Made by a program: the position numbers and the translations under genes
From: a virus
Virus record (IMG/VR): IMGVR_UViG_3300021364_000008
Span: 1-64,000 of that record
Reading direction: 5' to 3' (one strand)
DNA length: 64,000 nt
Notes under the pieces: generated by a model
Database searches by the model: none
The model's input: the letters and a program-made list of their open reading frames with translations, nothing else
What the model was told of the DNA's origin: nothing
Shown here: positions 1,895 through 25,748 of the stretch, one piece after another
Layout of the letters: each line of letters opens with the position of its first letter
Position numbering within the stretch: position 1 is the first letter of the stretch

Positions 1895-2093
1895 AGAAGT
1901 AACCTCTGAGCTTGGAGAACCTGATTGTAGATTAACTGAACCATTTTTAGTAGATCAATCAGGTTCAACTTTATCACCTTGGTTGATTGAGTTTACAACT
2001 GAAAATCAATATATGATATCATCAGACAAAATTATAACTCTCTCTGATCCAAAACCAACCTTACTTGAAAAATATCAGGATTTGATTAAATGA
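1836..2093 (+). CDS. Conserved cyanophage hypothetical protein
   Basis: LGEPDCRLTEPF motif; stop overlaps pol start (ATGA). Confidence 0.7.
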   Translation: MKPIKLILLMNNQILISQVEEVTSELGEPDCRLTEPFLVDQSGSTLSPWLIEFTTENQYMISSDKIITLSDPKPTLLEKYQDLIK

Positions 2094-3565
2094 AGTTTTA
2101 TACAAACGTGCAAATGATTGGGAACAAGTTCCTAGTTCGTGGTTATGAGAATGGTGAGCACGTTATGTTCAAAGATGAATATAATCCAACACTTTATGTT
2201 AAAAGTAATAAGGAAACTAAATATAAAACATTAGATGGTGAGTATGTTGAGGCAATTCAACCGGGAACTGTGAAAGATTGTCGTGAATTTTATAAAAAGT
2301 ATGAAGGAGTTCAGAACTTTAAAATTTACGGTAATGACAGATATGTTTATCAGTATATTTCTGACAAATATCCTCAAGATGAAATTAAGTTTGATATTAA
2401 TAAAATCAAGCTTGTAACTCTTGATATTGAAGTGGGATCTGAAAATGGATTTCCTGACCCAAAAGTTTCTGATCAAGAAATTCTTCTTATTACAATTCAG
2501 GACTATTCTACTAAACAGATTATTACTTGGGGGAATGGTCCTTTTAAGAATAAGCAAAGTAATGTTTCTTATAGAGAATTTACAAATGAGTATTCTCTTC
2601 TAAATGATTTTTTATATTATTGGGAACATAATATGCCAGAAGTTGTTACTGGTTGGAATGTTCAGTTCTTTGATATTCCTTTCATTTATGGGAGATTGGA
2701 AAAAGTTCTTGGGGAAAAAAGAGCTAAATCATTTTCTCCTTGGGGATTGGTGAGTAAAGAGGAAGTATTTATCAATAATAGAACAAATTTATTGATGGAT
2801 ATTGGTGGAATTACTCAACTAGATTATCTTGATTTATATAAAAAATTTACTTATAAGGCACAAGAATCTTATCGTCTAGATCACATTGCTAATGTGGAAC
2901 TTGGGGAGAAGAAATTAGATCACTCAGAATTTGATACTTTCAAAGATTTCTACACCAATGGATGGCAAAAGTTTGTAGAATATAACATCATTGACGTGGA
3001 ACTTGTTGATAGATTGGAAGATAAGATGAAACTGATTGAACTTGCTTTAACTATGGCATTTGATGCCAAGGTTAATTTTGGAGATGTATTTTATCAGGTT
3101 CGTATGTGGGATAATATTATTTACAATTATTTGAAAAAGAGAAATATTGTAATTCCCCCAAAAGATAGGTCTGAAAAGAATGAAAAGTATGCTGGAGCTT
3201 ATGTTAAAGAACCAGTTCCTGGTATTTATGAATGGATTTTGTCTTTGGATTTGACATCTCTATATCCTTCCCTCATTATGCAATATAATATTTCTCCAGA
3301 AACTCTCCTTGATGAAAAATATTCAGGAGTATCTGTTGATAAATTATTGAATAAAGAAATTAATATTGAAAATATTGACGGAAAATGTGTATGTTCAAAT
3401 GGTTGTATGTATGATACAACTAAAAGGGGAATATTTTCAGAACTTGTGGAAAAAATTTTTAATGATAGACAGTATTTTAAAAAAGAAATGTTGAAGGAAA
3501 AAAATAGACTGGAGGAAATTGAAAGTGAATTAAAGAAAAGAGGAATTGATTTAAATACTTTATAA
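2090..3565 (+). CDS. 43: DNA polymerase B (gp43), N-terminal part: exonuclease, motif A, first fingers helix
   Basis: ExoI DIE, ExoII GWNVQFFD, ExoIII YNIID, motif A DLTSLYPS; stops before motif B. Confidence 0.93.
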   Translation: MKFYTNVQMIGNKFLVRGYENGEHVMFKDEYNPTLYVKSNKETKYKTLDGEYVEAIQPGTVKDCREFYKKYEGVQNFKIYGNDRYVYQYISDKYPQDEIKFDINKIKLVTLDIEVGSENGFPDPKVSDQEILLITIQDYSTKQIITWGNGPFKNKQSNVSYREFTNEYSLLNDFLYYWEHNMPEVVTGWNVQFFDIPFIYGRLEKVLGEKRAKSFSPWGLVSKEEVFINNRTNLLMDIGGITQLDYLDLYKKFTYKAQESYRLDHIANVELGEKKLDHSEFDTFKDFYTNGWQKFVEYNIIDVELVDRLEDKMKLIELALTMAFDAKVNFGDVFYQVRMWDNIIYNYLKKRNIVIPPKDRSEKNEKYAGAYVKEPVPGIYEWILSLDLTSLYPSLIMQYNISPETLLDEKYSGVSVDKLLNKEINIENIDGKCVCSNGCMYDTTKRGIFSELVEKIFNDRQYFKKEMLKEKNRLEEIESELKKRGIDLNTL

Positions 3566-3593
3566 TATAAATAATAAAGAGTGTTTAAGTCAA
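3546..3593 (+). promoter_or_regulatory. Hairpin with late promoter TATAAATA in the loop, abutting HEG start
   Basis: TTGATTTAAATACT (3546-3559) / AGTGTTTAAGTCAA (3580-3593), 2 G-U pairs; TATAAATA 3566-3573; ATG 3594. Confidence 0.75.
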
Positions 3594-4268
3594 ATGAATT
3601 ATTTAAAATCTTATTGTAAGTTAATTAGAACTGCTGAAAAAAGAAATTGGAAAAGGAAAAATATTGATTTTTATATCGAAGAACATCATATTTTTCCAAT
3701 ATCAATCTATGGAAAAAATGACAGAATAGTTGGATTGACACCAAGAGAACATTTTTTGGCACATTGGTTACTTTATAAAATTTGTATGAAAAGATATGGT
3801 CTAAGAAATAATAAAACATTTAGTATGGGTTCTGCTTTTGCTATGATGTGTGTTACTAATGATTTGCAAGAAAGGAATTATACATCTAGGAAGTATGAGA
3901 TAGTTAGAAATTGTTTATCTACTATAAGAACTGGAAAGTCTAGAGACGATATGAAAGGGAAAAAATATTTTGGGGCAAGTGAAGATGTTATAAAAGAAGG
4001 TATAGAAAAGATGAGGAAAAAGAAAACGGGAATGAAGATAGAATATCCAAAAAATAGAAAATCTTCTCCCTGTTCATCAGAAAAAATAAAAAAAATATCA
4101 GAAACTAGAAAAAATACAAGAGTTAAATTTATTTCTATGAGTGAAGAAGAATTTGAATTGTGGATCTCCAAACAAAATTTTTATAGGAAAGATGGTGCGA
4201 GAAATTCAAATGTTACTCGTACATTAATGTGGAGAAATATTCCTTTGGAGAAATACTATGGGACTTGA
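3594..4268 (+). mobile_element. Free-standing HNH homing endonuclease splitting gp43
   Basis: EEHHIFP...LTPREHFLAHWLL HNH core; basic C-terminal region. Confidence 0.85.
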
Positions 4269-5367
4269 TTATTCAAAAATTTCTACAGATGAGTTGAAAA
4301 AGCAACGTCAAAATTGTATTAAAAGTATTTCGAAATATACAAATAATCAAATGGCAAGAAAAATACAACTTAATAGTTTGTATGGGGCAATAGGAAACGC
4401 ATACTTCAGGTATTACAAACTAGCAAACGCAGAAGCAATTACTCTTTCTGGTCAACTCTCAATTCGTTGGATTGAAAATAGAATGAATCAGTTTCTAAAT
4501 AAGATTTTAAAAACTAAGGATGTAGATTATGTCATCGCATCTGACACAGATTCAATTTATCTTAATCTTGGACCTATTGTTAATAAATTTTTTAATAATA
4601 AAGTTGGGAACAAGAACAAGATTGTGGAACTCTTGGATAAGATATGTCAAGAGCAGTTTGAACCGTTCATCGAATCCAGTTATAAAGAACTTGCGTCATA
4701 TGTCAATGCATATGAGCAAAAAATGCAAATGAAGAGAGAAAATATTGCCGATCGTGGAATATGGACTGCTAAAAAAAGATATATCTTGAATGTCTGGGAT
4801 AGTGAAGGTGTTCGATATGAAGAACCTAAACTTAAGATGATGGGAATTGAAGCAGTCAAATCTTCTACTCCAGCACCTTGTCGTAAGATGATTAAAAATG
4901 CTCTTAAGTTGATGATGAGTGGTACTGAGGATGATGTAATTGATTTTATTGAGAAATGTCGCTCTCAATTTAATAAATTTTCGCCAGAAGAAATAGCATT
5001 TCCTAGAACTGTAACTGATGTGGAAAAATGGAAATCATCATCTGGAATCTATAGTAAGGGAACACCCATTCACGTTCGTGGAGCACTTCTTTTCAATCAT
5101 TATATTAAAGAGAAAAAATTAACTAACAAATACTCTTTGATTCAAAATGGCGAAAAGATTAAATTTTGCTACTTAAAAAAACCAAACATTATTCATGAGA
5201 ATGTGATATCTTTTATATCAGATTTTCCGAAGGAATTTGGTATTGACAAGTATATTGATTATGAACTACAATTTGAAAAAGCATTCTTAGAACCACTTAA
5301 ATCAATTCTTGATGCTATTGGATGGAAAACAGAAAAAACAACTAGTCTGGAGGACTTTTTTTCATAA
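4258..5367 (+). CDS. 43: DNA polymerase B (gp43), C-terminal part
   Basis: Motif B KIQLNSLYG, motif C DTDS, KKRY, C-terminal clamp-binding SLEDFF. Confidence 0.93.
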   Translation: MGLDYSKISTDELKKQRQNCIKSISKYTNNQMARKIQLNSLYGAIGNAYFRYYKLANAEAITLSGQLSIRWIENRMNQFLNKILKTKDVDYVIASDTDSIYLNLGPIVNKFFNNKVGNKNKIVELLDKICQEQFEPFIESSYKELASYVNAYEQKMQMKRENIADRGIWTAKKRYILNVWDSEGVRYEEPKLKMMGIEAVKSSTPAPCRKMIKNALKLMMSGTEDDVIDFIEKCRSQFNKFSPEEIAFPRTVTDVEKWKSSSGIYSKGTPIHVRGALLFNHYIKEKKLTNKYSLIQNGEKIKFCYLKKPNIIHENVISFISDFPKEFGIDKYIDYELQFEKAFLEPLKSILDAIGWKTEKTTSLEDFFS

Positions 5368-6284
5368 TGGATTTTTTAAAGGACATTGTAAAGGAAATTG
5401 GTGACGATTACACACAACTTGCATCTGAAATTGATGAAACTGAAACTTATGTAGACACAGGTTCATATATTTTTAACGCATTAGTTTCTGGTAGTGTATT
5501 TGGTGGTGTATCTGGAAATAAAATTACTGCCATTGCTGGTGAGTCTTCTACTGGCAAAACTTTCTTTTCTCTTGCTGTTGTTAAAAATTTTCTTGATAGT
5601 AACCCAGATGGTTACTGCCTGTATTTTGATACTGAAGCAGCGATCACTAAATCTCTTTTGGAGAGTCGTGGAGTTGATACAACCAGAACTGTTGTTGTCA
5701 ATGTCGTAACAATTGAAGACTTTCGTACCAAAGCATTGAAAGCTGTAGATATCTACTTAAAGAAACCTGTAGAAGAACGCAAACCTTGTATGTTTGTGCT
5801 AGACTCTTTGGGTATGCTCTCAACTGAGAAAGAAATCAAAGATGCTCTAGATGATAAGCAAGTTCGTGATATGACCAAATCACAACTTGTAAAGGGTGCA
5901 TTCCGAATGCTAACTCTCAAGTTGGGTCAAGCAAAAATTCCAATGATTGTGACTAATCACGTATATTCCGTAATTGGACAATATGTTCCTATGCAGGAAA
6001 TGGGTGGGGGTTGTTTAGTTGCGGGAACTAAGATACAAACAGAAAATGGTTCTATTCCTATTGAATCTATTCAAGTTGGTGACAAAGTGAGAACTATGTT
6101 TGGTTATTCATCAGTTACTCACACTTTCCATTTCACCGACAAAGATGTTTATGAATTGGAATTGGAGGATGGAGAAACTATTAGATGTTCTGGTGAACAT
6201 AAATTTTTAGTAGATACTGGAGATGGTTATGAATGGAAATCTGTTACTGAGTTATTACCTTCAGATACTATCAAATCTATGTGA
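5367..6284 (+). CDS. uvsX: UvsX recombinase N-extein fused to 90-aa N-intein (6012-6281)
   Basis: Walker A GESSTGKT, VLDSLG; after EMGGG comes CLVAGTKI (block A) and IRCSGEHKF (block B). Confidence 0.92.
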   Translation: MDFLKDIVKEIGDDYTQLASEIDETETYVDTGSYIFNALVSGSVFGGVSGNKITAIAGESSTGKTFFSLAVVKNFLDSNPDGYCLYFDTEAAITKSLLESRGVDTTRTVVVNVVTIEDFRTKALKAVDIYLKKPVEERKPCMFVLDSLGMLSTEKEIKDALDDKQVRDMTKSQLVKGAFRMLTLKLGQAKIPMIVTNHVYSVIGQYVPMQEMGGGCLVAGTKIQTENGSIPIESIQVGDKVRTMFGYSSVTHTFHFTDKDVYELELEDGETIRCSGEHKFLVDTGDGYEWKSVTELLPSDTIKSM

Positions 6285-6289
6285 AAGTT

Positions 6290-6326
6290 GGTTCTGGACT
6301 AAATAATAATAGTTTAGTCCAGAACC
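6290..6326 (+). promoter_or_regulatory. Perfect 14-bp hairpin with late promoter (CTAAATA) abutting HEG start
   Basis: GGTTCTGGACTAAA / TTTAGTCCAGAACC; TTG start at 6327. Confidence 0.75.
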
Positions 6327-7001
6327 TTGTTTTTATCAAATAAGTATACTGATTGTTATTTCCGTATTATTAATAAGGCAAATCTTAGGAAACTTCCTCA
6401 AATTACTGAATGTCATCATATTATACCTAAATCATTAGGTGGAGGGGAAGAAGCAGAAAACAAAGTATATTTAACACCAAGAGAACATTTTGTCTGTCAC
6501 CATCTTCTTCTGAAAATGTTGGAGGGAAAATTAAAGCAGAAAATGTGTTATGCCTTTTATAATATGAAACGTAGTAATGGTAATGGTGTTAGATGTAAAA
6601 ATGTCAATTCTTATGATAGAATAAGATCACACTACTCACATCTTACTTCGGGTGAAAACAATCCATTTTATGGTAAGGGACATTATGGATTTTCTAACCC
6701 GATGTCAAACCCTGAAGTTCGGGAGAAACATAAACAAATCGTTTCTTCACCTGAACATAGAAAGAAGATGAGTGATAAAATGTCTGGTGAAAATAATCCA
6801 TTTTACGGAAGAACTCATTCAGATGAAACCAAGAAACATCTTTCTGAGTTGGCGTCTCAGAGAATAGGTAAAAACTCTCCCCGTTATGGGAAGAAACACA
6901 AACAAGTTGTTTGTGAACACTGCCAAAAACAAATCACTTACCCAATGTATAAGAGGTGGCATGGAACGAACTGTAAAATCTATAAAGAAAATAAAAACTG
7001 A
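6327..7001 (+). mobile_element. HNH homing endonuclease with NUMOD3-like repeats between the uvsX intein halves
   Basis: ECHHIIPKSLGG...LTPREHFVCHHLL; GENNPFYG x2, HSDETKK; CxxC tail. Confidence 0.88.
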
Positions 7002-7431
7002 AGATGTTTATGACATCACTGTTGAGGGAGAACATCATTATATTCTTGATAATGGTGTTGTGTCTCATAACTCTGGTCTTAAATATGCTGCTTCTACAAT
7101 CATTTATCTTTCTAAAAAGAAGGAGAAAGATGGAACAGAAGTCATTGGAAATATTATTAAAGCAAAGACTGCAAAATCACGCTTGAGTAAAGAAAATAAG
7201 GAAGTAGAGATTCGCTTGTATTATGATGAGAGGGGGCTAGACCGATACTATGGTCTCTTGGAGCTTGGAGAAATCGGTGGACTTTGGAAAAATGTAGCAG
7301 GACGCTATGAAATTGATGGTAAGAAAATTTATGGGAAACAAATTCTTGCAGAACCTGAAAAATATTTTACGCCCGAATTAATGGAGAAACTTGATGAAAT
7401 TGCGAGACACGAATTTAGTTACGGTAAGTAA
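6961..7431 (+). CDS. uvsX: 37-aa C-intein (6961-7071) fused to UvsX C-extein
   Basis: [33 protein letters not shown]|SGLKYAAS; GAGGTG upstream of ATG 6961. Confidence 0.92.
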
Positions 7432-8080
7432 AACACCATTATCACTATTTCCAATACCTGTTGAAATCTTTAATTTTAATAATCATTATCACGATTTAAA
7501 TGTATCTTTAATTGAAGATATAATTAAAGAAAAGAATAATGATCCTTCTGGTGCTAATCACAGCAATATGTGGGGGTGGCACAGTAAAACAAATTTGGAA
7601 AGAGTTTATGAGAGTTTTACTAGACTCAAAGATATAATTGAATCATGTGGAAATGAGTATTGTAAACAGTATGGATATAAAGATGGTTTAGTATGCTCAG
7701 ATCTTTGGGCAAATGTGAATGGTCCTAATGATTTAAATTTTAATCATCACCACGGAACTTCTGCTCTTGCTGGTGTTTATTATCCAGTCGAATCAATACT
7801 TGACTGTGGTTGTATTTTCAACTACACTAATAATAACCCATTAAAAGGTGGCACTTGGAATAATGTTGATGGGGGATCTCTTGTTTTTCAAGATCCTTCC
7901 TACGGAAAGAAAATCCATCTCATAAAGGATAAAGATTCTCCGTATAATGTAGATTTTTATCATTTATATCCAACTTCTGGAGTTTTGGTTTTATTTCCAA
8001 CCTACTTATTGCATAGTGTACTTCCATTCAGAGATGATAAAACTAGGGTAAGTATATCTTTTGCATTTATCTATGGATAA
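7391..8080 (+). CDS. Putative 2OG-Fe(II) oxygenase (TIGR02466-like)
   Basis: [28 protein letters not shown]; start uncertain. Confidence 0.8.
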
Positions 8081-8702
8081 AATTGAATTTTTAATATTGA
8101 AGTGTCTTATTAACAATGAAGAATATGCTAGAAAAGTTTTACCCTTTATTAAGGAAGAATATTTTGAAGAATTTGAGCAAAAGGTAGTATTTCAAGAAAT
8201 TTCTAAGTTTATTCTTGAGTATAATAAAATTCCCACAAAGCAAATTCTTGATATTGAAGTTGAAAAACGTAATGATATCAATGGAGATCAATATAAATCC
8301 ATAAGCCAACTAGTTGATAATCTTGATGAAATTGCTGTTGAATATAAATGGTTGATTGATTGTACAGAAAAATGGTGTAGAGATCGTGCAATTTATCTTG
8401 CCCTGATTGAATCTATTCAACTGGTAGATGATAAGGGTGATAAAAATAGAGATGCAATTCCATCAATATTGCAAGATGCTCTTTCAGTTTCATTTGACAA
8501 TCACGTAGGCCATGATTATCTTCAGGACTACAAAGGAAGATTTGAATTTTATAATAAAAAGGAGGAACGAGTTGAATTTGATTTGGAATATTTTAACAAA
8601 ATTACCAAAGGTGGTCTCCCTAATAAAACTCTCAATATCGCACTTGCTGGTTGTGTTCACCCAGAAACCAAAGTTAAGATTAGATTTAGGAAGATTTCTT
8701 GA
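8073..8702 (+). CDS. 41: Replicative helicase gp41 N-extein fused to 16-aa N-intein (8652-8699)
   Basis: TEKWCRDRAIY, VGHDY, KGGLPNKTLNIALAG then CVHPETKVKIRFRKIS-stop inside Walker A. Confidence 0.92.
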   Translation: MDKIEFLILKCLINNEEYARKVLPFIKEEYFEEFEQKVVFQEISKFILEYNKIPTKQILDIEVEKRNDINGDQYKSISQLVDNLDEIAVEYKWLIDCTEKWCRDRAIYLALIESIQLVDDKGDKNRDAIPSILQDALSVSFDNHVGHDYLQDYKGRFEFYNKKEERVEFDLEYFNKITKGGLPNKTLNIALAGCVHPETKVKIRFRKIS

Positions 8703-9354
8703 TTTTGGAGTTTGGTGCTGGTTCTCCTGTTCCAAATTTCCAACCTTCGTTTAATTTAGTATCAACATCTTCTGGAAGTATTCTTTTCCATCCTTTTGTT
8801 CCTGGTAAGTGCATTACCTTTTTGCCTTTGTGTGCCTTTCCTCCAAGAGATGCTCTTTCCCTTCTTCCTTGATTTGATGCCCAGTAATTAAATTCTTTTG
8901 ATGCTCTCTTTTTTCCTCCAAGAGATGCTCTTTCTTTTCTGCCTTCTTCTGTGCTCCAATAATAAAAATTTTTAACTTTATTGTTTAGATATTCTTGTTT
9001 TTGAGTTTCTATTCCTTTAATCATCCATTCTTTTCTTTCTTCTACTGGTGTTGAAAAGAAACCAAGTTGATTATCTCTACAAAACTCTCCAATTATTTTT
9101 CTATGTTGTGGTGATAAATTAGCACCTAACATTTTCATAGATCTTAAATCATTTGGATTTTTGTAAATCTTCCAAAGTAAATAGTGTGCTATGATGTGTT
9201 CTCTAACATTCAAGTATGTGAGGTTGCAATCATCATCTGTTCCTCCCATATGTTTAGGAACAATATGATGCTCGTGTAGTCCTGAATATTTCTTATAGTT
9301 TTCTCTTCTTAACTTATTGCCTTCGCATAAGTTAGAATAGATACGATCAAACAT
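8686..9354 (-). mobile_element. HNH homing endonuclease, antisense, between the gp41 intein halves
   Basis: HEHHIVPKHMGG...NLTYLNVREHIIAHYLL; repeated ERASLGGK; TATAAATA on minus strand at 9377-9384. Confidence 0.88.
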
Positions 9355-9388
9355 TCCCTGTCCCTGCTACTGTTATTATTTATATAAA

Positions 9389-10561
9389 ATGTGGATTGAA
9401 AAAGAAACATCAATTGCTGAAATCAAAACATTACTTGATAATGGATATGAGGTAGAAGTTGATTCGCCTGATGGATATGTTCCAGTCAATTTCTTTATTA
9501 ACAAAGGAATGTATGATGAATATGTTTTAAAGGTTGATGGTGAAGAACCAATTAGGTGTAATGCCGATCATTTATTTGAAACATCTTTTGGGTGGATGAA
9601 AGCATCGCATCTTTTTGAAAAATATAAGACAAATCATTTTTTAACTAAAAATGATTATAAACTTGGTAGTGTCTTTAAAACAGGAAATCAAATACCTATT
9701 GTTGATATTAATGTAAATCACCCAAATCATAGGTATTATACTAATGGTGTTTCTTCTCATAATACTGGTGTGGGTAAATCTCTATTCATGTGCCATGTGG
9801 CTAGCTCCGTCTTGCTCCAAGGGAGGAATGTACTCTACATTACAATGGAAATGGCAGAGGAGAAAATTGCTGAGCGAATTGATGCAAACCTTTTAAATAT
9901 CCCAATTCAGCAATTGACAGATCTTCCAAAGTCAATGTTTGAAACCAAAGTTACAAACATTTCTAAAAAAACTCAGGGAACTTTTATAATTAAAGAGTAT
10001 CCAACTGCTTCTGCACATGCTGGACACTTTAAATCACTTCTTAATGAACTTGCACTTAAGAAATCATTTAGACCTGATATTATTTTCATTGATTACCTTA
10101 ATATTTGTGCTTCCTCTAGATATAGGGGAAACCTTTCTGTCAATTCTTATTCGTATATTAAGGCAATTGCTGAAGAACTTCGAGGATTGGCGGTGGAATT
10201 CAATGTCCCCATCGTTTCTGCTACTCAAACCACTCGCAGTGGTTATGGTAGTTCTGATGTTGAACTTACTGATACTTCTGAATCCTTTGGTCTCCCTGCT
10301 ACTGCTGATCTTATGTTTGCCCTTATTAGCACTGAAGAGTTGGAGGAGTTGGGGCAGATTATGGTAAAGCAACTGAAGAATCGTTATGCTTCAACTGATA
10401 AATATAGAAGGTTCGTCTTAGGAATTGATAGGTCAAAAATGAGATTATATGACTGCGAGCAATCAGCTCAAGAAGATATTCTTGACAACAGCAAAGAAGA
10501 CGAGTATGATTTCCATGAGGAAAACAAACCCAAGAAAACATTTGAAGGATTTAAATTCTAA
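9389..10561 (+). CDS. 41: 125-aa C-intein (9389-9763) fused to gp41 helicase C-extein
   Basis: IRCNADHLF (block B), HPNHRYYTNGVSSHN|TGVGKS; FIDYL, SATQTTR, SESFGLPATAD. Confidence 0.93.
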   Translation: MWIEKETSIAEIKTLLDNGYEVEVDSPDGYVPVNFFINKGMYDEYVLKVDGEEPIRCNADHLFETSFGWMKASHLFEKYKTNHFLTKNDYKLGSVFKTGNQIPIVDINVNHPNHRYYTNGVSSHNTGVGKSLFMCHVASSVLLQGRNVLYITMEMAEEKIAERIDANLLNIPIQQLTDLPKSMFETKVTNISKKTQGTFIIKEYPTASAHAGHFKSLLNELALKKSFRPDIIFIDYLNICASSRYRGNLSVNSYSYIKAIAEELRGLAVEFNVPIVSATQTTRSGYGSSDVELTDTSESFGLPATADLMFALISTEELEELGQIMVKQLKNRYASTDKYRRFVLGIDRSKMRLYDCEQSAQEDILDNSKEDEYDFHEENKPKKTFEGFKF

Positions 10562-10562
10562 T

Positions 10563-10973
10563 ATGACTAAAGAAATTGATACTAAAAAGTACATCGAATT
10601 TGTTTCTAAAACTACAAGTGCTCCAAGTTCTGATTATGCTGCACTTATGACTCGACTGACTCAACTAGAAACAGAAGATGCAAATGTTCCAAAACTTATG
10701 ACTGCCGCATTTGGACTTTCTGCTGAAGCAGGTGAATTTACTGAAGTTGTAAAAAAGATTTTCCTTCAAGGCAAACCATACAATGAAGAAAATGTATTTC
10801 ATATGAAAAGAGAACTTGGAGATATTTGTTGGTACATGGCCCAAGCATGTATGGCACTTGATACTTCATTTGAAGAACTGATGCAAATGAATTATGAGAA
10901 GCTAAGTGCAAGATATCCAGAAGGAACTTTTGATGTATGGCGTTCTGAAAATCGTAAGGATGGAGATCTTTAA
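10563..10973 (+). CDS. mazG: MazG-like nucleotide pyrophosphohydrolase
   Basis: GLSAEAGEFTEVVKK, KRELGDICWY, NYEKLSARYP; ATG 10563. Confidence 0.9.
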   Translation: MTKEIDTKKYIEFVSKTTSAPSSDYAALMTRLTQLETEDANVPKLMTAAFGLSAEAGEFTEVVKKIFLQGKPYNEENVFHMKRELGDICWYMAQACMALDTSFEELMQMNYEKLSARYPEGTFDVWRSENRKDGDL

Positions 10974-10978
10974 TACTT

Positions 10979-11007
10979 AGACCCTTAAGGGTCTTTTTTT
11001 ATAAATA
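10979..11007 (+). terminator. Intrinsic terminator fused to late promoter
   Basis: AGACCC-TTAA-GGGTCT + T-run running into TATAAATA (11000-11007). Confidence 0.7.
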
Positions 11008-11034
11008 TCCATAGAACAATATAAAGTATTTCAA

Positions 11035-12531: not shown

Positions 12532-12600
12532 CATAGTAAGACCCCCCCCCTTGACAAATCTGTTGAGGGGGTTTTATACTATTAGAACTTACATGAGATT

Positions 12601-13365: not shown

Positions 13366-13415
13366 ATATAAATAATTTTAGGATATAAAATCTAAAAAGT
13401 TTGTAGTCAAATATT

Positions 13416-13844: not shown

Positions 13845-13866
13845 ATATAGTATAATAAAAAAAAGT

Positions 13867-15024
13867 ATGAAAAAATTCTCTGCATTTATATCAGAAGCAA
13901 AAGAATCTCTTGCATCTCAAAGAGCCAAAAAGATGGGTCTTAGGGGAGATGGTCATGGATCGTGGTATAATGCAGCTGGAGAATTTATTGCTAAAACTGA
14001 AGGTGGGGAATTAAAATTTTATACCAAGGGGCAGAGAACTCCTGGAAAAGATGTTCCTCCAGACCAGCAAAAAAAACCTCAAGAATTTCAAAAAGTTCAG
14101 CAGCAAGAACCGGCACCAGAAGATAGTGAAGGTAAAAAAGTAACTTTAGTATTTGGTAAGTTCAATCCACCAACTAAAAAGAATCTGCAATTGTTCAACT
14201 ATGCAAAAATGGTTGCTGCTGGATCTGATTTGAGGATTTATCCTTCTAGGTCACAAGACTCTAATATGAATCCTTTAAAACCAGATACTAAAATTGAGTT
14301 TATGAAAAAAATGTTTCCATCATTTAAAGATAATATTGTAAATGATGATGAGTCTAATACTATTTTTGATGTTCTCAAAAAAGTTGAAAATGATGGATAT
14401 AGTGATGTAACTATTGTGGTTGGATCTGATAGACTTGGTGAATTTAAAAGTCTTGCTCAAAAATATAATGGAACTCTTTATAACTTTGATGATATTAGTG
14501 TAGTTGCTGGTACTGAGAAAGATGGCGATAATGAAATGTCATCCAAAATGAGGGAGTTTGTTTCCCAAGACAATTTTGCTTCGTTTAAGTCTGGACTCCC
14601 TTCTAATTTTAAAGATGGTGAAAAATTATTTAAAAAAGTAAAGTCTGGAATGGGATTAGATGCTAAAAAAGAGGGAGTTGAATTGTGGAGAATTGCTCCC
14701 AAATTAAGATATAAAAATCTCAGAGACAATTATATTGGAGGTAATATTTTTAAGAGTGGAACAATTGTGGAAAATATTAATACTGGATTGAGGGGTAAGA
14801 TTATTCGTCGTGGAACTAACTATCTCATCTGTGCTACTGAAGAAAATCTAATGTTCAAATCTTGGATTACTGATGTAGTAGAGAAAAAATCATTTACTGA
14901 TGTATCTGGTGTTCCTGCAGATCAAAGAGAAGTTGGAACTCCAGCACTTACCAAATACACAATGAAAATGGCAGATGTGAAGAAAATTCGCAATTTCATA
15001 AATAAGTATAAGGCTAAAAAGTAA
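13867..15024 (+). CDS. Cyanophage cytidylyltransferase-like (HIGH-superfamily) protein with degenerate motif
   Basis: FGKFNPPTKKN, VVGSDR, MSSKMR; N-terminus MKKFSAFISE. Confidence 0.75.
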   Translation: MKKFSAFISEAKESLASQRAKKMGLRGDGHGSWYNAAGEFIAKTEGGELKFYTKGQRTPGKDVPPDQQKKPQEFQKVQQQEPAPEDSEGKKVTLVFGKFNPPTKKNLQLFNYAKMVAAGSDLRIYPSRSQDSNMNPLKPDTKIEFMKKMFPSFKDNIVNDDESNTIFDVLKKVENDGYSDVTIVVGSDRLGEFKSLAQKYNGTLYNFDDISVVAGTEKDGDNEMSSKMREFVSQDNFASFKSGLPSNFKDGEKLFKKVKSGMGLDAKKEGVELWRIAPKLRYKNLRDNYIGGNIFKSGTIVENINTGLRGKIIRRGTNYLICATEENLMFKSWITDVVEKKSFTDVSGVPADQREVGTPALTKYTMKMADVKKIRNFINKYKAKK

Positions 15025-15038
15025 AACATTTTATACTC

Positions 15039-17177: not shown

Positions 17178-17178
17178 T

Positions 17179-17568
17179 ATGGCCATTTATGGTGGAAATG
17201 ATCCTGAATATTTAAAAAAACAAAAACTGAAAAAAATTAAAAAGAGTCTTCCTCCTGGAGTTGGATTTCAGGGAAGGTATGATCAATATGGTAGAGAATA
17301 TGACACTACTGCTGGTAAACTAAAAGAAGCTCTTTCAAGATCAACATATCATTCTGATTTTGCAAAAAAAGACTCAGAAAAAGAGGAAGAGCATCGTCAA
17401 AGAGATGCTCGTATGAAGCATGGTAAGAGTTGGAAAGAATTTACTGACGATGTTGAGAGTGCTAAAAGTAGAGTTGGTAAAGGTGAGGTTAAATGGTATG
17501 ATAAAAAAAATAAAACTTGGAAATCATCAAAATTCGAACGTGTCCCAAAACCATTTTCTGATAAATAA
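17179..17568 (+). CDS. Basic hypothetical protein
   Basis: ATG 17179 follows the upstream stop; QRDARMKHGK..GEVKWYD. Confidence 0.65.
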   Translation: MAIYGGNDPEYLKKQKLKKIKKSLPPGVGFQGRYDQYGREYDTTAGKLKEALSRSTYHSDFAKKDSEKEEEHRQRDARMKHGKSWKEFTDDVESAKSRVGKGEVKWYDKKNKTWKSSKFERVPKPFSDK

Positions 17569-17615
17569 TTGAGGAATTAATTTTCTCGATATTCAATTTA
17601 TTAAAGGAGGGTACA

Positions 17616-17786
17616 GTGTCTAAAATAGTAGAACTAGTTAAGCCTGTAGTATTTGCATTCATTGGGTCAAGAGAAGTAAAAGAATTTGTTATTCAACTTC
17701 TAGAAAAATATGTTTCTAGAACAGATAACTCAGTTGATGATGTTGCAGTTCAACTCATCAAAGAAAAACTTCTTCCTAACGAGTGA
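17616..17786 (+). CDS. Small conserved cyanophage protein (56 aa; not in ORF track)
   Basis: AAGGAGG SD, GTG start, LLEKYVSRTDNSVDD. Confidence 0.7.
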   Translation: MSKIVELVKPVVFAFIGSREVKEFVIQLLEKYVSRTDNSVDDVAVQLIKEKLLPNE

Positions 17787-17890
17787 TAGGGTTTTAAACT
17801 CTATTAAACAAAATAGAATAATTTAGGAGAGAAGTAAGCACTTCTCTTTTTTTATAAATATTTTTAGTTAAAACATTTAAAGGTAAAAAG

Positions 17891-18445
17891 ATGGCACTCT
17901 GGGGCAATAAGGATTCAGTTTACTCTGACGGTACTATTTCAGTAAATCTTGAAACTAATACTATAGAGGGTGGCGTTGGTGTTGTCACTTTCACTACCTC
18001 CGGAATTAGTACCGGTGACGTAATCGCAGTGGGAACTGGTGCTACCTACGGATATGCAATAGTAGCAGGATTTACATCCACCACAATTTCTATTGCTAAC
18101 ACTGCAGATTTTGTTTCTGGACTTACAACTGTTCCTTCAGGAACTTCATACTTTATTTCTCAAGAACCAGTATACACTCTTGGAGATTCTACTTACAGAG
18201 CACCTGAGTCTAAAACTGTTGGATATTCTACAAGTCCAGTATTCACTGGGGTATTTGGTGTGGATGAAATTGAGGTTGGAATAGCAGCAACAACTGCCTA
18301 TGCAGTCACTCACGGTGGATGGGTTGGACTCACAACCTATATTGATATGCATGGAAATTTGAGAGTTAAGAATGAAGTTTTAGTTGCTGGTGGCATTCTT
18401 ACTACTACTGATGCTCCTGATGATACCTACTTCCCAGATGCTTGA
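17891..18445 (+). CDS. Virion structural protein
   Basis: MALWG start, HGGWVG..GNLRVKNEVLVA; TATAAATA upstream. Confidence 0.7.
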   Translation: MALWGNKDSVYSDGTISVNLETNTIEGGVGVVTFTTSGISTGDVIAVGTGATYGYAIVAGFTSTTISIANTADFVSGLTTVPSGTSYFISQEPVYTLGDSTYRAPESKTVGYSTSPVFTGVFGVDEIEVGIAATTAYAVTHGGWVGLTTYIDMHGNLRVKNEVLVAGGILTTTDAPDDTYFPDA

Positions 18446-18470
18446 TAAATATAAGAACTGAAAATTAAAT

Positions 18471-18863
18471 ATGCACTTTAATGAATTAAACCGAGATAAT
18501 TTTTTATTATTTGCAATAAAAAATTATGAGAATCCTCAGGCAGTTACAAAAGATGATTTTAACAAAGACCTGAATCATTTTAAGTATATTAAAAGATTAC
18601 TTAAAAGATATAAAAAAACTGGTGAAATTAAAAGTCATCTTTTGATTAATCATTTTTTAATTTTGTATAATGTTTTTGGTGAAGCTACTACTCCAATGTT
18701 ATTTTGTAAATTAGATCCTGAGTATTGGCCACAAATAAAAACTTTTTTAGTATTTTTAAATAGACTTCCGGAATATCCAAAGTCAGATATTCATGATATA
18801 ATGGTCGATATTGAATGCCTAAAGCAGCTAAATAAAATTTACAAATCAGATGGAAAAAGTTGA
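18471..18863 (+). CDS. Conserved T4-like hypothetical protein
   Basis: NFLLFAIKNYENP, FKYIKRLLKRY, LINHFLILYNVFG. Confidence 0.75.
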   Translation: MHFNELNRDNFLLFAIKNYENPQAVTKDDFNKDLNHFKYIKRLLKRYKKTGEIKSHLLINHFLILYNVFGEATTPMLFCKLDPEYWPQIKTFLVFLNRLPEYPKSDIHDIMVDIECLKQLNKIYKSDGKS

Positions 18864-19044
18864 TAGAGTAATTGAATATTTTAGATCTCTTAGAGAAGAT
18901 GCTCCGACTATGAATGTTGGATCTGGAAAAATTGCAGGAACTCGTGAAGCTGGTGATGATCCTCCTGTTTTTAATAGAAAGAAAAAGAAAAAGTATATCT
19001 ATGGTCCTCGTAAAGTTTGGATAGATCACCTGAAAGATAAATAA
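18850..19044 (+). CDS. Small hypothetical protein
   Basis: LREDAPTMNVGSGKIAG..DDPPV; overlaps upstream stop. Confidence 0.65.
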   Translation: MEKVDRVIEYFRSLREDAPTMNVGSGKIAGTREAGDDPPVFNRKKKKKYIYGPRKVWIDHLKDK

Positions 19045-19085
19045 TTAAAAATGGCAAAGTGAGAAAACGCTATAGGATTCTCATA

Positions 19086-19541
19086 ATGTCTCCTTTCAAA
19101 AAAAATATCAAATTAGATACAGATCAAGAATCAGTCAGAGTTGCTATTCTTGAGCAAAAACTTACAGATTTTGTTGATGTCGTAGGAAAACTTGATGCTG
19201 CTATTGAAAAGTTAAGTGAAGTTAATGGTAATATTTCAAAAATGCTTGCAGTTCACGATGAAAAATTGACACAATCTGCAAAAGATGATTATCTAATTAT
19301 GAAATCAATTGAAGAAATTAAAGAGCAAAATAATGCTGATCACAATAAAGTTTTAGATAGAATTGAAAAAATAGAATATAAAATTCAAGATTTTGGTAAA
19401 TTTAGATGGATGACTATTGGAATTGGAGTTGCCATAATGGTTGGGATTAGTGGATTGACAACTTTGGCATCTGGAATAATTAGAATGGAAAATAAAAATT
19501 CATCTCAAAGTAGTTATGTCAAACAAATCAGTCAGATATAG
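19086..19541 (+). CDS. Coiled-coil protein with C-terminal transmembrane helix
   Basis: ISKMLAVHDEKL; hydrophobic segment after FRW; start uncertain. Confidence 0.65.
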   Translation: MSPFKKNIKLDTDQESVRVAILEQKLTDFVDVVGKLDAAIEKLSEVNGNISKMLAVHDEKLTQSAKDDYLIMKSIEEIKEQNNADHNKVLDRIEKIEYKIQDFGKFRWMTIGIGVAIMVGISGLTTLASGIIRMENKNSSQSSYVKQISQI

Positions 19542-19675
19542 TTTGATATCATATTGTCTTCACAAAATCTCAAACTCTGTGGCTAAGTGGACAAGTTTAA
19601 TCTCAGATATATGTAAGCAGATACTTGACTGATATCATAATAGTTGCTATACTTTTCTGAGGGCATTTTCTCCAA

Positions 19676-20644
19676 ATGGATTTTATTGACATAAAATATA
19701 TTAATATCATTTCAACAAGACTTTCTAAGTTTAAAAAAGTTAAAGCCAATTTATACAATTTTAGATGTCCAATTTGTGGAGATTCTAGGAAAAATAAAAA
19801 CAAAGCGAGGGGATACTTATATGAAGTAAAAAACAATACAAATTATAAGTGTCATAATTGTGGAATAAATATTTCATTCTCAAATTTCTTAAAGGAAATT
19901 GATAATACTATTCATAAAGAATATTCTTTTGATAAATTTAAAGAAGGCAAAACTGGTAAAAATTTTGTAGTAGAAGAACCCAAGTTTAATTTTGAAAGTC
20001 CAAAGTTTAAAACTCGAATAAATTTACCTAAGGCATCTGAAAATGAAGATGCAAGGAAGTATTTGGAAAATAGAAAATTAGATCCTGATAAATTTTATTA
20101 TGCCGAAAAATTTAAATATTGGACAAATACTCTTAAGAAAACATTTGATAATATTGATTATGATGAACCTAGAATAATAATTCCACTATTTTATGAGAAA
20201 AAATTGATTGGATTTCAAGGTAGAGCACTAGGTAACAGTAAGATTAAATATATAACTATAATGTTAGATGAAAATGCGCCAAAAATTTATGGACTTGATA
20301 CTATTGATGAGAAAAAACCAATCTATGTGGTCGAAGGACCCTTTGACAGCACTTTTGTCAGCAATTGTGTGGCATTGTGTGGCAGTGACGGTGATGTGGG
20401 TTGTCTTAAGGGAAGCGATATTATTTTTGTGTATGATAATGAACCCCGTAATAAAGAAATTGTTGATAGAATTGACAGAATTATTGAAAGAGGATATAAA
20501 TCAGTCATCTGGCCGAGTAACATAAAGGAGAAGGACATAAACGATATGGTATTGGCTGGACTGGATGTTCAGTCTGTGATAGAATTAAATACTTATTCTG
20601 GATTACAAGCAAAAATAAAGTTTACTACTTGGAAAAAAATATGA
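19676..20644 (+). CDS. 61: DNA primase (gp61)
   Basis: CPICGDS..CHNCG Zn finger; VVEGPFDS, YDNEPRN, KDINDM TOPRIM motifs. Confidence 0.95.
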   Translation: MDFIDIKYINIISTRLSKFKKVKANLYNFRCPICGDSRKNKNKARGYLYEVKNNTNYKCHNCGINISFSNFLKEIDNTIHKEYSFDKFKEGKTGKNFVVEEPKFNFESPKFKTRINLPKASENEDARKYLENRKLDPDKFYYAEKFKYWTNTLKKTFDNIDYDEPRIIIPLFYEKKLIGFQGRALGNSKIKYITIMLDENAPKIYGLDTIDEKKPIYVVEGPFDSTFVSNCVALCGSDGDVGCLKGSDIIFVYDNEPRNKEIVDRIDRIIERGYKSVIWPSNIKEKDINDMVLAGLDVQSVIELNTYSGLQAKIKFTTWKKI

Positions 20645-22095
20645 GCAACCAATCAAATGTAATTAAGAGAAATGGTGAAGTGGAAATCCTTAACCTAGAC
20701 AAGATGCATGTTATGGTGGAGGAAGCTTGTAGGGGAATTTCTGGAGTTTCTGCAAGTCAAGTTGAAATGAAGTCTGGAATACAATTTTACGATGGAATTA
20801 CTACTAAGGAAATTCAAGAAATTCTTATTCGTAGTGCTAGTGATTTGATCGATCTGGATCATCCAAATTATCAATATGTTGCTGCAAGACTACTTTTATT
20901 TTCTATTCGTAAGCAACTTTATGCCAGACAGTTTGAATTGCCCCATCTTGAAGATCACATTATAAATTGTGTAAATGCTGAAGTTTACGATAATGAAATC
21001 TTTACAAAATATTCTAAAGAAGAAATTGATAAGGTAAATAGTTTCATTGATCATGATAGAGATCTTCTTTTTACTTATGCAGGTCTTCGTCAAGTAGTTG
21101 ATAAGTATTTGGTTCAAGATAGAAGTTCTGGTGGAGTATATGAAACTCCGCAGTTTATGTACATTATGATTGCTTTGACTATTTTTGCGGAATATCCAAA
21201 ACAAACTCGTTTACTTTATGTAAAAAGGTATTATGACGCAATCAGCAAACACAAGATCAACATTCCAACACCAATTATGGCAGGTGTTAGAACCCCACTT
21301 CGCCAATTTGCAAGTTGTGTTCTTGTTGATGTCGATGATACCATGCGTAGTATCGAGTCAAGTGATGCTGCTATTTTTAGGTACGTTGCTCAAAGAGCTG
21401 GAATTGGTATCAACGCAGGTCGAATCAGGGGTATCAACAGCAAAATCAGAGGGGGAGAAGTTATTCATACAGGTGTTGTCCCATTCCTCAAAAAGTTTGA
21501 AGCAACTGTTAGAAGTTGTACACAGAACGGGATTCGCGGTGGAAGTGCTACGGTCCACTTTCCAATCTGGCACCAAGAAATAGAAGACATCATTGTCTTA
21601 AAAAATAATAAAGGAACTGAGGATAATCGTGTTCGTAAGTTAGACTACAGCATTCAGATTAGTAAACTGTTCTATGAACGTTTCATTCAAGACAAAGAAA
21701 TTTCTCTCTTCAGTCCGCATGACGTTCCTGGTTTGTATGATGCTTTTGGCACTGATAGATTTGACGATCTATATTGCCATTACGAACGAGCTCAAGATGT
21801 TCCAAGAAAGACTGTCCGTGCTCAAGAACTCATTCTGGATCTTCTAAAAGAACGTGCTGAGACTGGTCGTATTTACATTATGAATATTGACCATTGTAAT
21901 TCTCATAGTTCTTTTAAGGATCAAATTACAATGTCAAACCTCTGCCAAGAAATTTGTCTGCCGACTGTACCAATTCAGCATATTGATCAAAAACCAAATA
22001 CGATGAAAATGAAAGTAAAAGTTAAAAAAGATAAAGTTAATGATTATAAAAAATATATTCAAAATACCGGAGGAGTTCTATATGACCATGAATAA
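20641..22095 (+). CDS. nrdA: Class Ia ribonucleotide reductase alpha, N-terminal part (NrdA-a)
   Basis: ATP cone VIKRNG, QFASCVL, SNLCQEI; ends in a Lys-rich non-RNR tail. Confidence 0.92.
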   Translation: MSNQSNVIKRNGEVEILNLDKMHVMVEEACRGISGVSASQVEMKSGIQFYDGITTKEIQEILIRSASDLIDLDHPNYQYVAARLLLFSIRKQLYARQFELPHLEDHIINCVNAEVYDNEIFTKYSKEEIDKVNSFIDHDRDLLFTYAGLRQVVDKYLVQDRSSGGVYETPQFMYIMIALTIFAEYPKQTRLLYVKRYYDAISKHKINIPTPIMAGVRTPLRQFASCVLVDVDDTMRSIESSDAAIFRYVAQRAGIGINAGRIRGINSKIRGGEVIHTGVVPFLKKFEATVRSCTQNGIRGGSATVHFPIWHQEIEDIIVLKNNKGTEDNRVRKLDYSIQISKLFYERFIQDKEISLFSPHDVPGLYDAFGTDRFDDLYCHYERAQDVPRKTVRAQELILDLLKERAETGRIYIMNIDHCNSHSSFKDQITMSNLCQEICLPTVPIQHIDQKPNTMKMKVKVKKDKVNDYKKYIQNTGGVLYDHE

Positions 22096-22243
22096 TTAAT
22101 ACCAGAAAAGTTTTGGGTCTAAAAATGGTTGGAGTAAAAAGGTTAAAATTGGAGAAGTTGTGTATGATTGTATGAGAGAAGCATCAGAAAAAACCGGTTT
22201 AAGTTTACATTTAATTAGAAAAAAAGGAGATTTCAATGTCTAA
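22082..22243 (+). pseudogene. Remnant of a homing endonuclease between the nrdA halves
   Basis: One frame reads MTMNN-stop-YQKSFGSKNGWSKKVKIGEVVYDCMREASEKTGLSLHLIRKKGDFNV-stop; NUMOD1/HTH-like HEG tail with no nuclease core. Confidence 0.65.
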
Positions 22244-23276
22244 TAAATTGTACGAATTTGTATTTGAAAATGAAATAGAAGATAATGAAAATTATGAATA
22301 TTTTTATGAAGATGTAGTAGTTGATGATAATCCAGCATCAATTCAGCTATGCATTCTTTCGGCAATTAATGTCGGAAAAGTAAAATCTGATGAAGAACTT
22401 GAAGAACTTTGCGATCTTTCGGTTCGTGGATTGGATGAATTGATTGATTATCAGAAATATCCTGTAAAGGCAGCTGAAATAGCTACAAAGGCACGTAGAT
22501 CCCTTGGAATAGGTTTTATTGGGTTGGCACACTATTTGGCAAAACTTGGGTTTAATTATGCAGATCAAGAAGCATGGGACGCTGTTCATGGTCTTTCAGA
22601 ATCTTTTCAGTACTATCTTTTGAAAGCATCAAATCAACTTGCTAAAGAAAAGGGATATTGTGAGTACTTTGGACGTACTAAGTATGCTGATGGTATTTTG
22701 CCAATTGATACTTATAAGAAAGATGTGGATGAGATTTCTTCAATTCCTCTTCAGCATAACTGGGAAGAACTTAGGAAGAATATTTTGGAGTATGGGTTGC
22801 GCCATAGTACATTGACTGCTCAAATGCCCTCAGAGTCATCTTCAGTGGTCTCTAATGCAACCAATGGAATAGAACCTCCTCGTGGATTCCTGTCCATTAA
22901 GAAGTCTAAGAAAGGGCCTCTTAAGCAGATTGTTCCCCAATATTCTACCTTAAAAAATAATTACACACTTTTGTGGGACATGAAATCTAATGAGGGATAC
23001 ATTAATATAGTTGCAGTAATGCAAAAGTTTTTCGATCAAGCAATCAGTGGCAATACCAGTTACAATCCAGAGAACTATCCAAATAATGAGGTCCCTGTAA
23101 GTGTCTTGGCACAAGATCTGCTTACTTGTTTTCGTACTGGATGGAAAACACTTTATTATCAAAATACTTATGATATTAAAACTGATGATTTTTCGGATAA
23201 GTCTTCAGAAATTGAAAGACTTATAAATGATATTATGGAGTCTGATGAAAATGATTGCGAATCATGTAAAGTTTAG
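22236..23276 (+). CDS. nrdA: Class Ia ribonucleotide reductase alpha, C-terminal part (NrdA-b)
   Basis: AAGGAGA SD; acidic leader then LCILSAIN, MPSESSS, NGIEP, KTLYY, C-terminal CESC. Confidence 0.92.
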   Translation: MSNKLYEFVFENEIEDNENYEYFYEDVVVDDNPASIQLCILSAINVGKVKSDEELEELCDLSVRGLDELIDYQKYPVKAAEIATKARRSLGIGFIGLAHYLAKLGFNYADQEAWDAVHGLSESFQYYLLKASNQLAKEKGYCEYFGRTKYADGILPIDTYKKDVDEISSIPLQHNWEELRKNILEYGLRHSTLTAQMPSESSSVVSNATNGIEPPRGFLSIKKSKKGPLKQIVPQYSTLKNNYTLLWDMKSNEGYINIVAVMQKFFDQAISGNTSYNPENYPNNEVPVSVLAQDLLTCFRTGWKTLYYQNTYDIKTDDFSDKSSEIERLINDIMESDENDCESCKV

Positions 23277-25712: not shown

Positions 25713-25748
25713 GTCAGCAAAGACACATTTAGTGGATTTAAACTCTGA
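25713..25748 (+). pseudogene. Stranded duplicate of the nrdB 3' end
   Basis: Reads VSKDTFSGFKL-stop versus expressed VSANTFSDFKL-stop; both followed by CAAA. Confidence 0.8.

Follow-up and report, generated by a model that had tools for sequence, protein, structure and literature searches.

Four replication and recombination genes of a T4-like cyanophage contig in pieces, with homing-endonuclease cassettes and predicted reassembly at the protein level

Friedrich in 2007 reportedly described the ribonucleotide reductase (RNR) NrdA of Aeromonas phage Aeh1 as encoded by genes in pieces. The order there is nrdA-a / mobE / nrdA-b: mobE splits nrdA between the equivalents of Cys439 and Cys462, and the tails brought in are essential for activity (Crona 2011, PMC3045599); the requirement for these tails in (a/b)2 assembly and in activity has been shown for Aeh1 only (PMC3045599). 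Fractured genes (gp41-1 to gp41-9, NrdA-1 to NrdA-7, NrdJ, IMPDH, DnaE, ligase and terminase) were described from ocean metagenomes (Dassa, London, Stoddard, Schueler-Furman and Pietrokovski 2009; PMC2677866), and naturally split inteins with an N-terminal fragment (IntN) of 15-37 amino acids (aa) form an established class (PMC13014065). For the split DNA polymerase gp43 of Aeromonas salmonicida phage 25, the halves co-purify and are active (PMC2988022, citing Petrov, Ratnayaka and Karam 2010). Here we describe breaks of these kinds in gp43, uvsX (recombinase), gp41 (helicase) and nrdA, which lie together in 21 kb of one contig. The window analysed is the first 64 kb (positions 1 to 64,000) of the IMG/VR virus contig IMGVR_UViG_3300021364_000008 (99,003 bp; CheckV completeness 47%). 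Gene content and DNA matches placed the contig among the T4-like cyanophages of Synechococcus and Prochlorococcus, with a DNA identity to the nearest cultured relative no higher than ~78%.

Each of the four genes is present as two open reading frames (ORFs), as the initial annotation of the window had claimed; this was borne out by the ORFs, by Pfam and by alignment to the intact S-SM2, S-SRM01 and S-PM2 genes, from which the break points were set (Table 1). An HNH gene had been proposed for the gaps of gp43, uvsX and gp41, and all three gap ORFs indeed match phrog_655 (annotated homing endonuclease) and share the nuclease motif HH-P...H...H (HH..P..N..H..H) with Aeh1 MobE (BLASTP E=6e-14). 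Twelve positions are invariant in the four-way alignment with MobE, among them H31, H32, I33, P35, G40, L48, H53 and H57; the Pfam HNH match is weak (E=0.005, one of the three ORFs). The antisense orientation of the gp41-gap gene had gone unmentioned. The halves of uvsX and gp41 carry split-intein fragments, as had been stated, the gp41 intein being split atypically (16 + 125 aa). In the following, a tail is the extra peptide ending an N-terminal half and a head is the extra peptide beginning a C-terminal half (N-half and C-half).

On the observed anatomy, homologies, conservation, distribution and evolutionary stages of these loci, we consider it likely that the replication/recombination module of a T4-like cyanophage was colonised four times independently by homing-endonuclease cassettes and that the pieces are rebuilt at the protein level. 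Each mobile cassette would leave an essential gene as two cistrons. UvsX and gp41 would be restored by protein trans-splicing to scarless proteins of 334 and 458 aa, gp43 would assemble non-covalently across a break at the solvent-exposed tip of the fingers hairpin, and NrdA would also assemble non-covalently, through a basic tail and an acidic head that arrived with the cassette, as in Aeh1 NrdA-a/NrdA-b. The endonuclease genes would come with a late-promoter motif or a hairpin as control elements of their own, and the cassettes would spread by homing, co-converting flanking sequence. The earlier proposal of two trans-splicing reactions and two non-covalent reassemblies, which was drawn from the anatomy, thus gains support from sequence and comparison. 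All the elements are of kinds already described: Dassa-type fractured genes, VidaL-type atypical split inteins, Aeh1-type split NrdA and phage-25-type split gp43. The additions made here are four breaks in one module, a link of the cyanophage nrdA cassette to that of Aeh1, a rationale for the kept 3' ends, and a full series of stages including a re-fused NrdA.

Table 1. Positions in the 64-kb window of the split genes, their intein fragments, the gap endonuclease genes and associated signals (IntC, C-terminal intein fragment; nt, nucleotides).
Feature	Position	Strand	Description
gp43 N-half (43A-like)	2090..3565	+	N-terminal and 3'-5' exonuclease domains, palm motif A, first fingers helix; DNA_pol_B profile positions 21-145 (Pfam)
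T4-type late-promoter motif TATAAATA	3566..3573	+	20 nt (28 nt from first base) upstream of gp43-gap endonuclease gene
gp43-gap endonuclease, MobE-type HNH	3594..4268	+	224 aa; 3' end bears Shine-Dalgarno sequence and start of gp43 C-half
gp43 C-half (43B-like)	4258..5367	+	Second fingers helix with motif B, palm motif C (DTDS), thumb; DNA_pol_B from profile position 148
uvsX N-half ORF	5367-6284	+	RecA and Intein_splicing/Hint (Pfam)
uvsX N-extein	5367..6011	+	215 aa, C-terminus EMGGG
uvsX IntN	6012..6284	+	90 aa, Cys1, block B CSGEH, then stop codon
Hairpin, 15-bp stem	6290..6326	+	Directly before start codon of uvsX-gap endonuclease
uvsX-gap endonuclease, MobE-type HNH and NUMOD3	6327..7001	+	224 aa, TTG start; overlaps IntC start by 41 nt
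uvsX C-half ORF	6961 (or 6886)-7431	+	C-terminal end of Intein_splicing (Pfam)
uvsX IntC	6961..7071	+	37 aa, C-terminus VVSHN; Shine-Dalgarno sequence GAGGTGG 5' of ATG 6961
uvsX C-extein	7072..7431	+	119 aa, Ser at +1 (SGLKY..)
gp41 N-half ORF	8061/8073-8702	+	N-terminal part of gp41
gp41 N-extein	8073..8651	+	C-terminus ..NIALAG (first half of Walker A); ATG 8073 matches S-SM2 start
gp41 IntN	8652..8702	+	Only 16 aa (CVHPETKVKIRFRKIS), then stop codon
gp41-gap endonuclease, MobE-type HNH	8686..9354	-	222 aa, antisense; weak HNH Pfam match
Late-promoter motif TATAAATA	9377..9384	-	Just upstream of antisense gp41-gap endonuclease gene
gp41 C-half ORF	9389-10561	+	DnaB_C (Pfam)
gp41 IntC	9389..9763	+	125 aa, block B CNADH, C-terminus GVSSHN
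gp41 C-extein	9764..10561	+	Thr at +1 (TGVGKS..)
nrdA N-half (NrdA-a-like)	20641..22095 (ORF from 20629/20641)	+	484 aa from ATG 20641; Ribonuc_red_lgC positions 1-221; thiyl-radical Cys motif NLCQEI
nrdA basic tail	21991-22092	+	~34 aa, end of N-half
Endonuclease remnant	22100..22240	+	Final ~45 codons, MobE-family DNA-binding module; deletion junction at AAAAGTT (22106-22112); Shine-Dalgarno sequence AAGGAG for C-half
nrdA C-half (NrdA-b-like)	22236..23276	+	346 aa; acidic ~33-aa head with core EDNENYEYFYEDV, then redox-Cys motif LCILSAIN; Ribonuc_red_lgC positions 218-522

The extein junction of uvsX falls exactly between EMGGG and SGLKY, and the spliced UvsX predicted from it has 334 aa, the size of the intact S-SM2 protein. 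The locus shows what characterises fractured genes, i.e., a single break, Cys1 and block B in IntN, His-Asn followed by Ser, and a free-standing endonuclease gene on the same strand. Among solved inteins, its IntN is closest to gp41-1 (6qaz, E=6e-11), itself one of the Dassa loci. The two uvsX halves are most likely rejoined by trans-splicing through a canonical split intein. The cassette recurs with the same layout in at least 25 IMG/VR contigs; in two relatives (L264, L265), the uvsX-gap endonuclease gene is eroded to its final 18 codons. Ratios of nonsynonymous to synonymous substitutions (dN/dS) for the uvsX split-intein gene are 0.08-0.27. The loci of Dassa et al. are likewise from cyanophage-like relatives of T4, have endonuclease genes with their own control elements (hairpin, promoter) and include endonuclease-less examples; their endonucleases, however, are GIY-YIG or Vsr-like and those of the window MobE-type HNH, and uvsX is not among their eight host enzymes but lies intact upstream of gp41 there (PMC2677866). 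A literature search of limited reach for uvsX split inteins and for the native host gene of VidaL returned nothing usable. The VidaL intein presumably comes from a T4-like helicase.

In gp41, the break lies inside the Walker A motif (P-loop), between ALAG and TGVGKS, and the intein carries Cys1, the block-B His, a terminal HN and Thr at +1. The best match in the PDB of IntC alone is VidaL (6vgv, E=5.4e-9), a 16-aa "ultra-short" split intein, and for L211, a naturally contiguous relative of the gp41 intein, the VidaL match spans residues 5-141 (E=1.7e-12). The features of the S1/VidaL class were found, namely a short IntN, a long IntC with blocks B, F and G, and homology to a characterised member; the likeness to VidaL thus extends to the 16-aa IntN, the S1 split position, cysteine dependence, the IntC blocks and the sequence itself. 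Splicing would yield a gp41 of 458 aa, again the size of the intact S-SM2 protein, and it is most likely that the halves rejoin by trans-splicing through this atypically split intein of the VidaL class. Differences from VidaL are Thr at +1, a native context that is visible here (P-loop, antisense HNH gene, late-promoter motif), and the finding of natural contiguous and of endonuclease-less split forms. The gp41 locus departs from Dassa-type fractured genes, in which the endonuclease gene is on the same strand: gp41-1 to gp41-7 occupy another integration point (position 356 of P-SSM2 gp41) with three ORFs on one strand, whereas the window has a break at Walker A, a 16-aa IntN and an antisense endonuclease gene.

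The gp41 IntC occurs in at least 80 IMG/VR contigs, and the layout of N-half, antisense endonuclease gene and C-half is found in more than 60 contigs, even at gp41 identities of 44-64%. In five contigs (L211-L215) the intein is contiguous, and ..RFRKISWWIEKE.. spans the split point; in four others (L197, L199, L236, L239) it is split there and no endonuclease gene is present. Several relatives (L177, L187, L205, L209, L212-L214, L217, L239) carry a second gp41 intein at C-half residue 286/287, a gp41-1-type site, the N-part of which is 40-46% identical to the uvsX IntN of the window; gp41 can therefore carry two inteins together. Mutual orthogonality of the uvsX and gp41 inteins of the window is plausible because their split topologies differ and they are 30% identical.

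The break in gp43 is at the tip of the fingers, between motif A (DLTSLYPS) and motif B (KIQLNSLYG), and the catalytic motifs are intact in the halves. The initial annotation had described gp43 and nrdA as free of inteins and as carrying extra terminal peptides. Pfam gave no intein match in either gp43 half, nor, at E<=10, in the nrdA tails, and the extra peptides of nrdA (a tail of ~34 aa, a head of ~33 aa) were confirmed; for gp43, this part of the description had to be reduced to ~8 aa per side. The N-half ends in ..ELKKRGIDLNTL before its stop codon, of which the final ~8 aa are extra relative to contiguous relatives, and the truly extra residues (RGIDLNTL and MGLDYSKI) are so few because the contiguous polymerases P0065 and P0068 (848 aa) already share the long fingers tip. 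The order of the window (N-half, endonuclease gene, C-half) recurs in four IMG/VR contigs (L089-L092), and split gp43 N-halves of ~470-494 aa that keep at least part of the tail make up ~18 further clusters, the largest with 105 members. The gp43-gap endonuclease gene overlaps the start of the C-half by 11 nt at its 3' end, and the C-half has its own Shine-Dalgarno sequence (GGAG) and ATG.

In Aeromonas salmonicida phages 25 and 44RR, gp43 is likewise split (43A/43B), with the break at the fingers tip and motifs A and B on either side; in phage 25 the gap holds an endonuclease gene and, as in the window, the N-half ends with ..RGI... The phage 25 gap endonuclease looks GIY-YIG by sequence motif (annotated just "homing endonuclease"), that of the window MobE-type HNH. 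Further differences are the intron-free C-half of the window, the cyanophage lineage, and the contiguous relatives with a long fingers tip. In a contig in which gp43 is intact (L249:4664-5182, G003), a free-standing endonuclease gene 48% identical to the gp43-gap endonuclease lies between gp43 and uvsX, which suggests that this family occupies intergenic as well as intragenic sites.

In nrdA, the break lies between NLCQEI and LCILSAIN, i.e., between the equivalents of Cys439 and Cys462, the same loop as in Aeh1 NrdA, which also has no intein and has an endonuclease gene overlapping the start of the second half. The two ORFs differ in reading frame, and the C-half comes with an AAGGAG and an ATG of its own. 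The 140-bp gap is a 47-codon stop-to-stop frame that, taken alone, weakly resembles the DNA-binding domain of I-TevI (E=0.008). Its identification as an endonuclease remnant, already suggested by the initial annotation, became firm by comparison: in five IMG/VR contigs (L009-L011, L289, L290), halves with the same NrdA tails flank an intact 254-aa endonuclease gene whose final 45 codons are 84-96% identical to the remnant, and the state of the window corresponds to a 664-bp deletion between two copies of the 7-bp repeat AAAAGTT. At three of the four loci (gp43-C, uvsX-C, nrdA-C), the translation signals of the C-half, its Shine-Dalgarno sequence and its start codon, are embedded in the 3' end of the endonuclease gene; this explains that decay of the nrdA endonuclease stops at that end.

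Residues 110-249 of the intact 254-aa endonuclease (L009) are homologous to residues 99-230 of Aeh1 MobE (E=1e-20) and to T-even mobE, so that the DNA-binding module is shared; its N-terminal half differs from MobE (GIY-YIG-like by eye, no Pfam hit). The basic tail resembles that of Aeh1 (KMKVKVKKDKVNDYK vs KMLFKVKKSEVDKFK, common pattern KM..KVKK..V..[YF]K), and 3/2000 shuffles score as high. The window differs from Aeh1, an Aeromonas phage, in its cyanophage (Kyanoviridae-like) background, in the reduction of the endonuclease gene to a 140-bp remnant and in the existence of re-fused descendants among its cyanophage relatives. A further 21 protein clusters contain the head, in all of which the core EDNENYEYFYEDV is unchanged, and about 15-16 contain the tail (heads and tails together ~37); among the matches listed from the best-matching cultured cyanophage records, none extends into either tail. 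Four re-fused NrdAs (P0038, P0041, P0045, P0048; JGI, ENA; up to 833 aa) keep tail and head, joined by ASLPPGRGT, as an internal insert; the re-fused junction was searched in IMG/VR, where only split forms were found. In the AlphaFold2 model of P0041 (mean predicted local distance difference test score, pLDDT, 60), the insert comprises a strand (454-462), a helix (463-475) and two further strands (490-492 and 503-511), with pLDDT 59-79; pairing of the tails is not claimed, because no contacts are readable from the model. An uncontrolled complex prediction for the NrdA tails alone (residues 455-488 + 1-33) scored 0.03 and is evidence neither way.

These nrdA stages lead to a broader proposal, which we hold with slightly less than even confidence: the break-and-reassemble peptides may be portable parts of the cassettes that outlive them, an endonuclease with the MobE module having brought the same kind of NrdA break, along with a basic tail that is at least related, to phages as far apart as Aeh1 and marine cyanophages, with stepwise decay up to re-fusion. 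The steps would run from an intact endonuclease gene through a remnant of its 3' end, retained for the ribosome-binding site of the next cistron (as in the window), to in-frame re-fusion, in which both tails would persist as an insert of ~65 aa inside a loop of the RNR barrel (P0041 and similar). If this is true, homing endonucleases would permanently add new segments to proteins and would split the genes of essential enzymes in a heritable way.

Beside the break, the nrdA of relatives shows other insertions. A contiguous 176-aa mini-intein sits at the thiyl-radical Cys (NLC/..VHN/CQEI; L009:2510-3037, also L010 and L011; P0042-P0047), ~20 residues before the endonuclease break, and the same mini-intein is found in split form (33-aa IntC) in other NrdA C-halves. 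In L289 and L290, an insert of 450 bp at N-half residue 305/306 takes the place of the mini-intein.

The non-covalent reading of gp43 and nrdA is preferred because the break sites match two experimentally studied precedents (PMC3045599, PMC2988022), intein motifs are absent and the C-halves have their own Shine-Dalgarno sequence and ATG. An alternative, chiefly for the 140-nt gap of nrdA, is repair at the level of RNA or translation, by group I intron splicing or by a ribosome bypass like that of T4 gene 60. Group I introns occur in nrd genes of T4-like phages, and gene 43B of phage 25 carries one. Bypass elements of the gene-60 type are reported to be mobile (bioRxiv 10.1101/2022.08.31.505936). 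Yet Rfam gave no intron-like RNA in the window at gathering score and no match in the gp43 and nrdA gaps at E<=1, the gaps hold protein-coding sequence under selection, the nrdA halves are in different frames with a separate ribosome-binding site and ATG for the C-half, the non-homologous tails would stay in the product, and the junctions of uvsX and gp41 are exactly explained by the intein boundaries; such a repair is hardly to be expected.

Comparison with diverged relatives gave dN/dS of 0.04-0.17 for the exteins, 0.08-0.37 for the intein fragments and 0.10-0.14 for the endonucleases (rough ratios, because dS is often saturated). For the gp43 halves the values are 0.10-0.15, for the last 50 codons of the nrdA N-half (tail included) 0.10 and for the head 0.37. 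All pieces, including tails, intein fragments and endonucleases, are thus under purifying selection (0.04-0.37). This bears on the alternative that at least one split gene, likeliest the intein-less gp43 or nrdA, is inactive and is replaced in function by the host or by an intact second copy in the part of the genome that is missing from the contig. The sequenced part amounts to ~47% of the genome, and the decayed nrdA endonuclease indicates an eroding locus. We nevertheless judge inactivity very improbable, since dN/dS is 0.08-0.15 for the gp43 and nrdA halves, the NrdA tail segments are constrained as just given, the catalytic motifs are intact, and split forms persist in many protein clusters and in relatives that differ at 20-30% of amino acids (protein identities 68-81%). 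The four genes are single-copy core genes in T4-like phages. In a search for second copies of gp43, uvsX, gp41 and nrdA, tblastn of each piece against the whole 99-kb contig returned only self-matches. In Aeh1 and phage 25, enzymes split in these ways are active (PMC3045599, PMC2988022).

Over each cassette, DNA identity to relatives peaks at ~90-100%; a few hundred bases away it has dropped to 65-80%, as homing with co-conversion would lead one to expect. The density of breaks, which had been singled out as unusual, holds against the related IMG/VR contigs examined (~115): each has one or two breaks and none has all four, so that among these relatives the contig of the window stands alone. 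Contigs with split gp43 have intact uvsX and gp41, those with split uvsX have intact gp43 wherever it is visible, and two long contigs in which uvsX and gp41 are both split have intact gp43 and nrdA. The contig is metagenomic, cassette combinations vary among relatives and the closest relative changes from one segment to the next (identity to L260 is 96-100% over the uvsX cassette and just 62-74% over gp43), and it may thus be an assembly mosaic, joining alleles of co-occurring cyanophage strains, in which each break is real but no single phage has all four. A mosaic is unlikely, in our judgement: the identity declines gradually around the cassettes, as homing with co-conversion predicts, with no abrupt switch; both gp43 halves match one lineage (L089-L092); and all eight half-proteins, together with the gp43-gap and gp41-gap endonucleases (the two looked up), have identical sequences in both JGI/IMG and ENA. 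The gp43 N-half is also on a separate ENA contig of 51,218 bp (a database record, not necessarily an independent assembly).

Several points weigh against a fourfold colonisation with reassembly at the protein level. Splicing, orthogonality, assembly and enzyme activity are what we infer from the sequences, and the linkage of the four breaks on one molecule rests on the assembly and on the same proteins from a second source. As the contig represents ~47% of the genome, intact second copies may lie elsewhere in it. Orthogonality is not guaranteed, because inteins split at atypical sites were the most prone to cross-reaction in published tests (PMC7090010). The gp41 C-half has no recognisable Shine-Dalgarno sequence, and an exact search of IMG/VR found the nrdA deletion junction in no other contig. 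The acidic head of NrdA is not significantly similar to that of Aeh1, and homology of the two heads was dropped (a profile of 22 cyanophage heads ranks the Aeh1 head 401 of 2001). Homology of the gp43 tail to the 43A tail of phage 25 is likewise not claimed, the resemblance being weak (44/2000 shuffles score as high).

Taken as a replication module colonised by cassettes, these 21 kb would gather every known way in which a phage copes with an endonuclease in an essential gene, and the relatives would supply the intermediates. The gene-breaking models of Dassa 2009 and Crona 2011 could be tested by comparison, the gp41 intein being available as contiguous and as split with or without an endonuclease gene, and the NrdA break with an intact gene, with a remnant and re-fused. 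For protein engineering, a gp41-1-like canonical and a VidaL-like 16-aa split intein might represent a naturally co-evolved pair in one cell. By analogy with Aeh1, the cyanophage NrdA may be a second natural lineage of tail-dependent split RNR and a test case for the generality of the Aeh1 mechanism.

Further endonuclease-related sequences follow the split genes and bring the number of such ORFs to at least seven in 27 kb. A GIY-YIG and NUMOD3 endonuclease gene (window 24588-25322) lies after nrdB with its own TATAAATA motif at 24557, and ~1.2 kb downstream (window 25713-25745), VSKDTFSGFKL with a stop is a second copy of the nrdB C-terminus, VSANTFSDFKL with a stop (tblastn E=0.018, small search); this fits a cassette that inserted into the last nrdB codons and duplicated them. 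A 149-aa GIY-YIG-only protein (window 25927-26376) and a 192-aa MobE-like HNH protein with a C-terminus resembling the MobE DNA-binding module (window 26406-26984) come next. Beyond the window, in the tail/baseplate region of the same contig (G000:C1:79956-80525, minus strand), an ORF of 189 aa with NUMOD3-like repeats, a MobE-like C-terminal module and no recognisable nuclease domain may be another decayed endonuclease gene. In the window, Rfam also identified a wcaG RNA motif (79.7 bits), an abiF RNA (49.4 bits) and a cluster of five tRNA genes (32555-32654 and 29772-31531).

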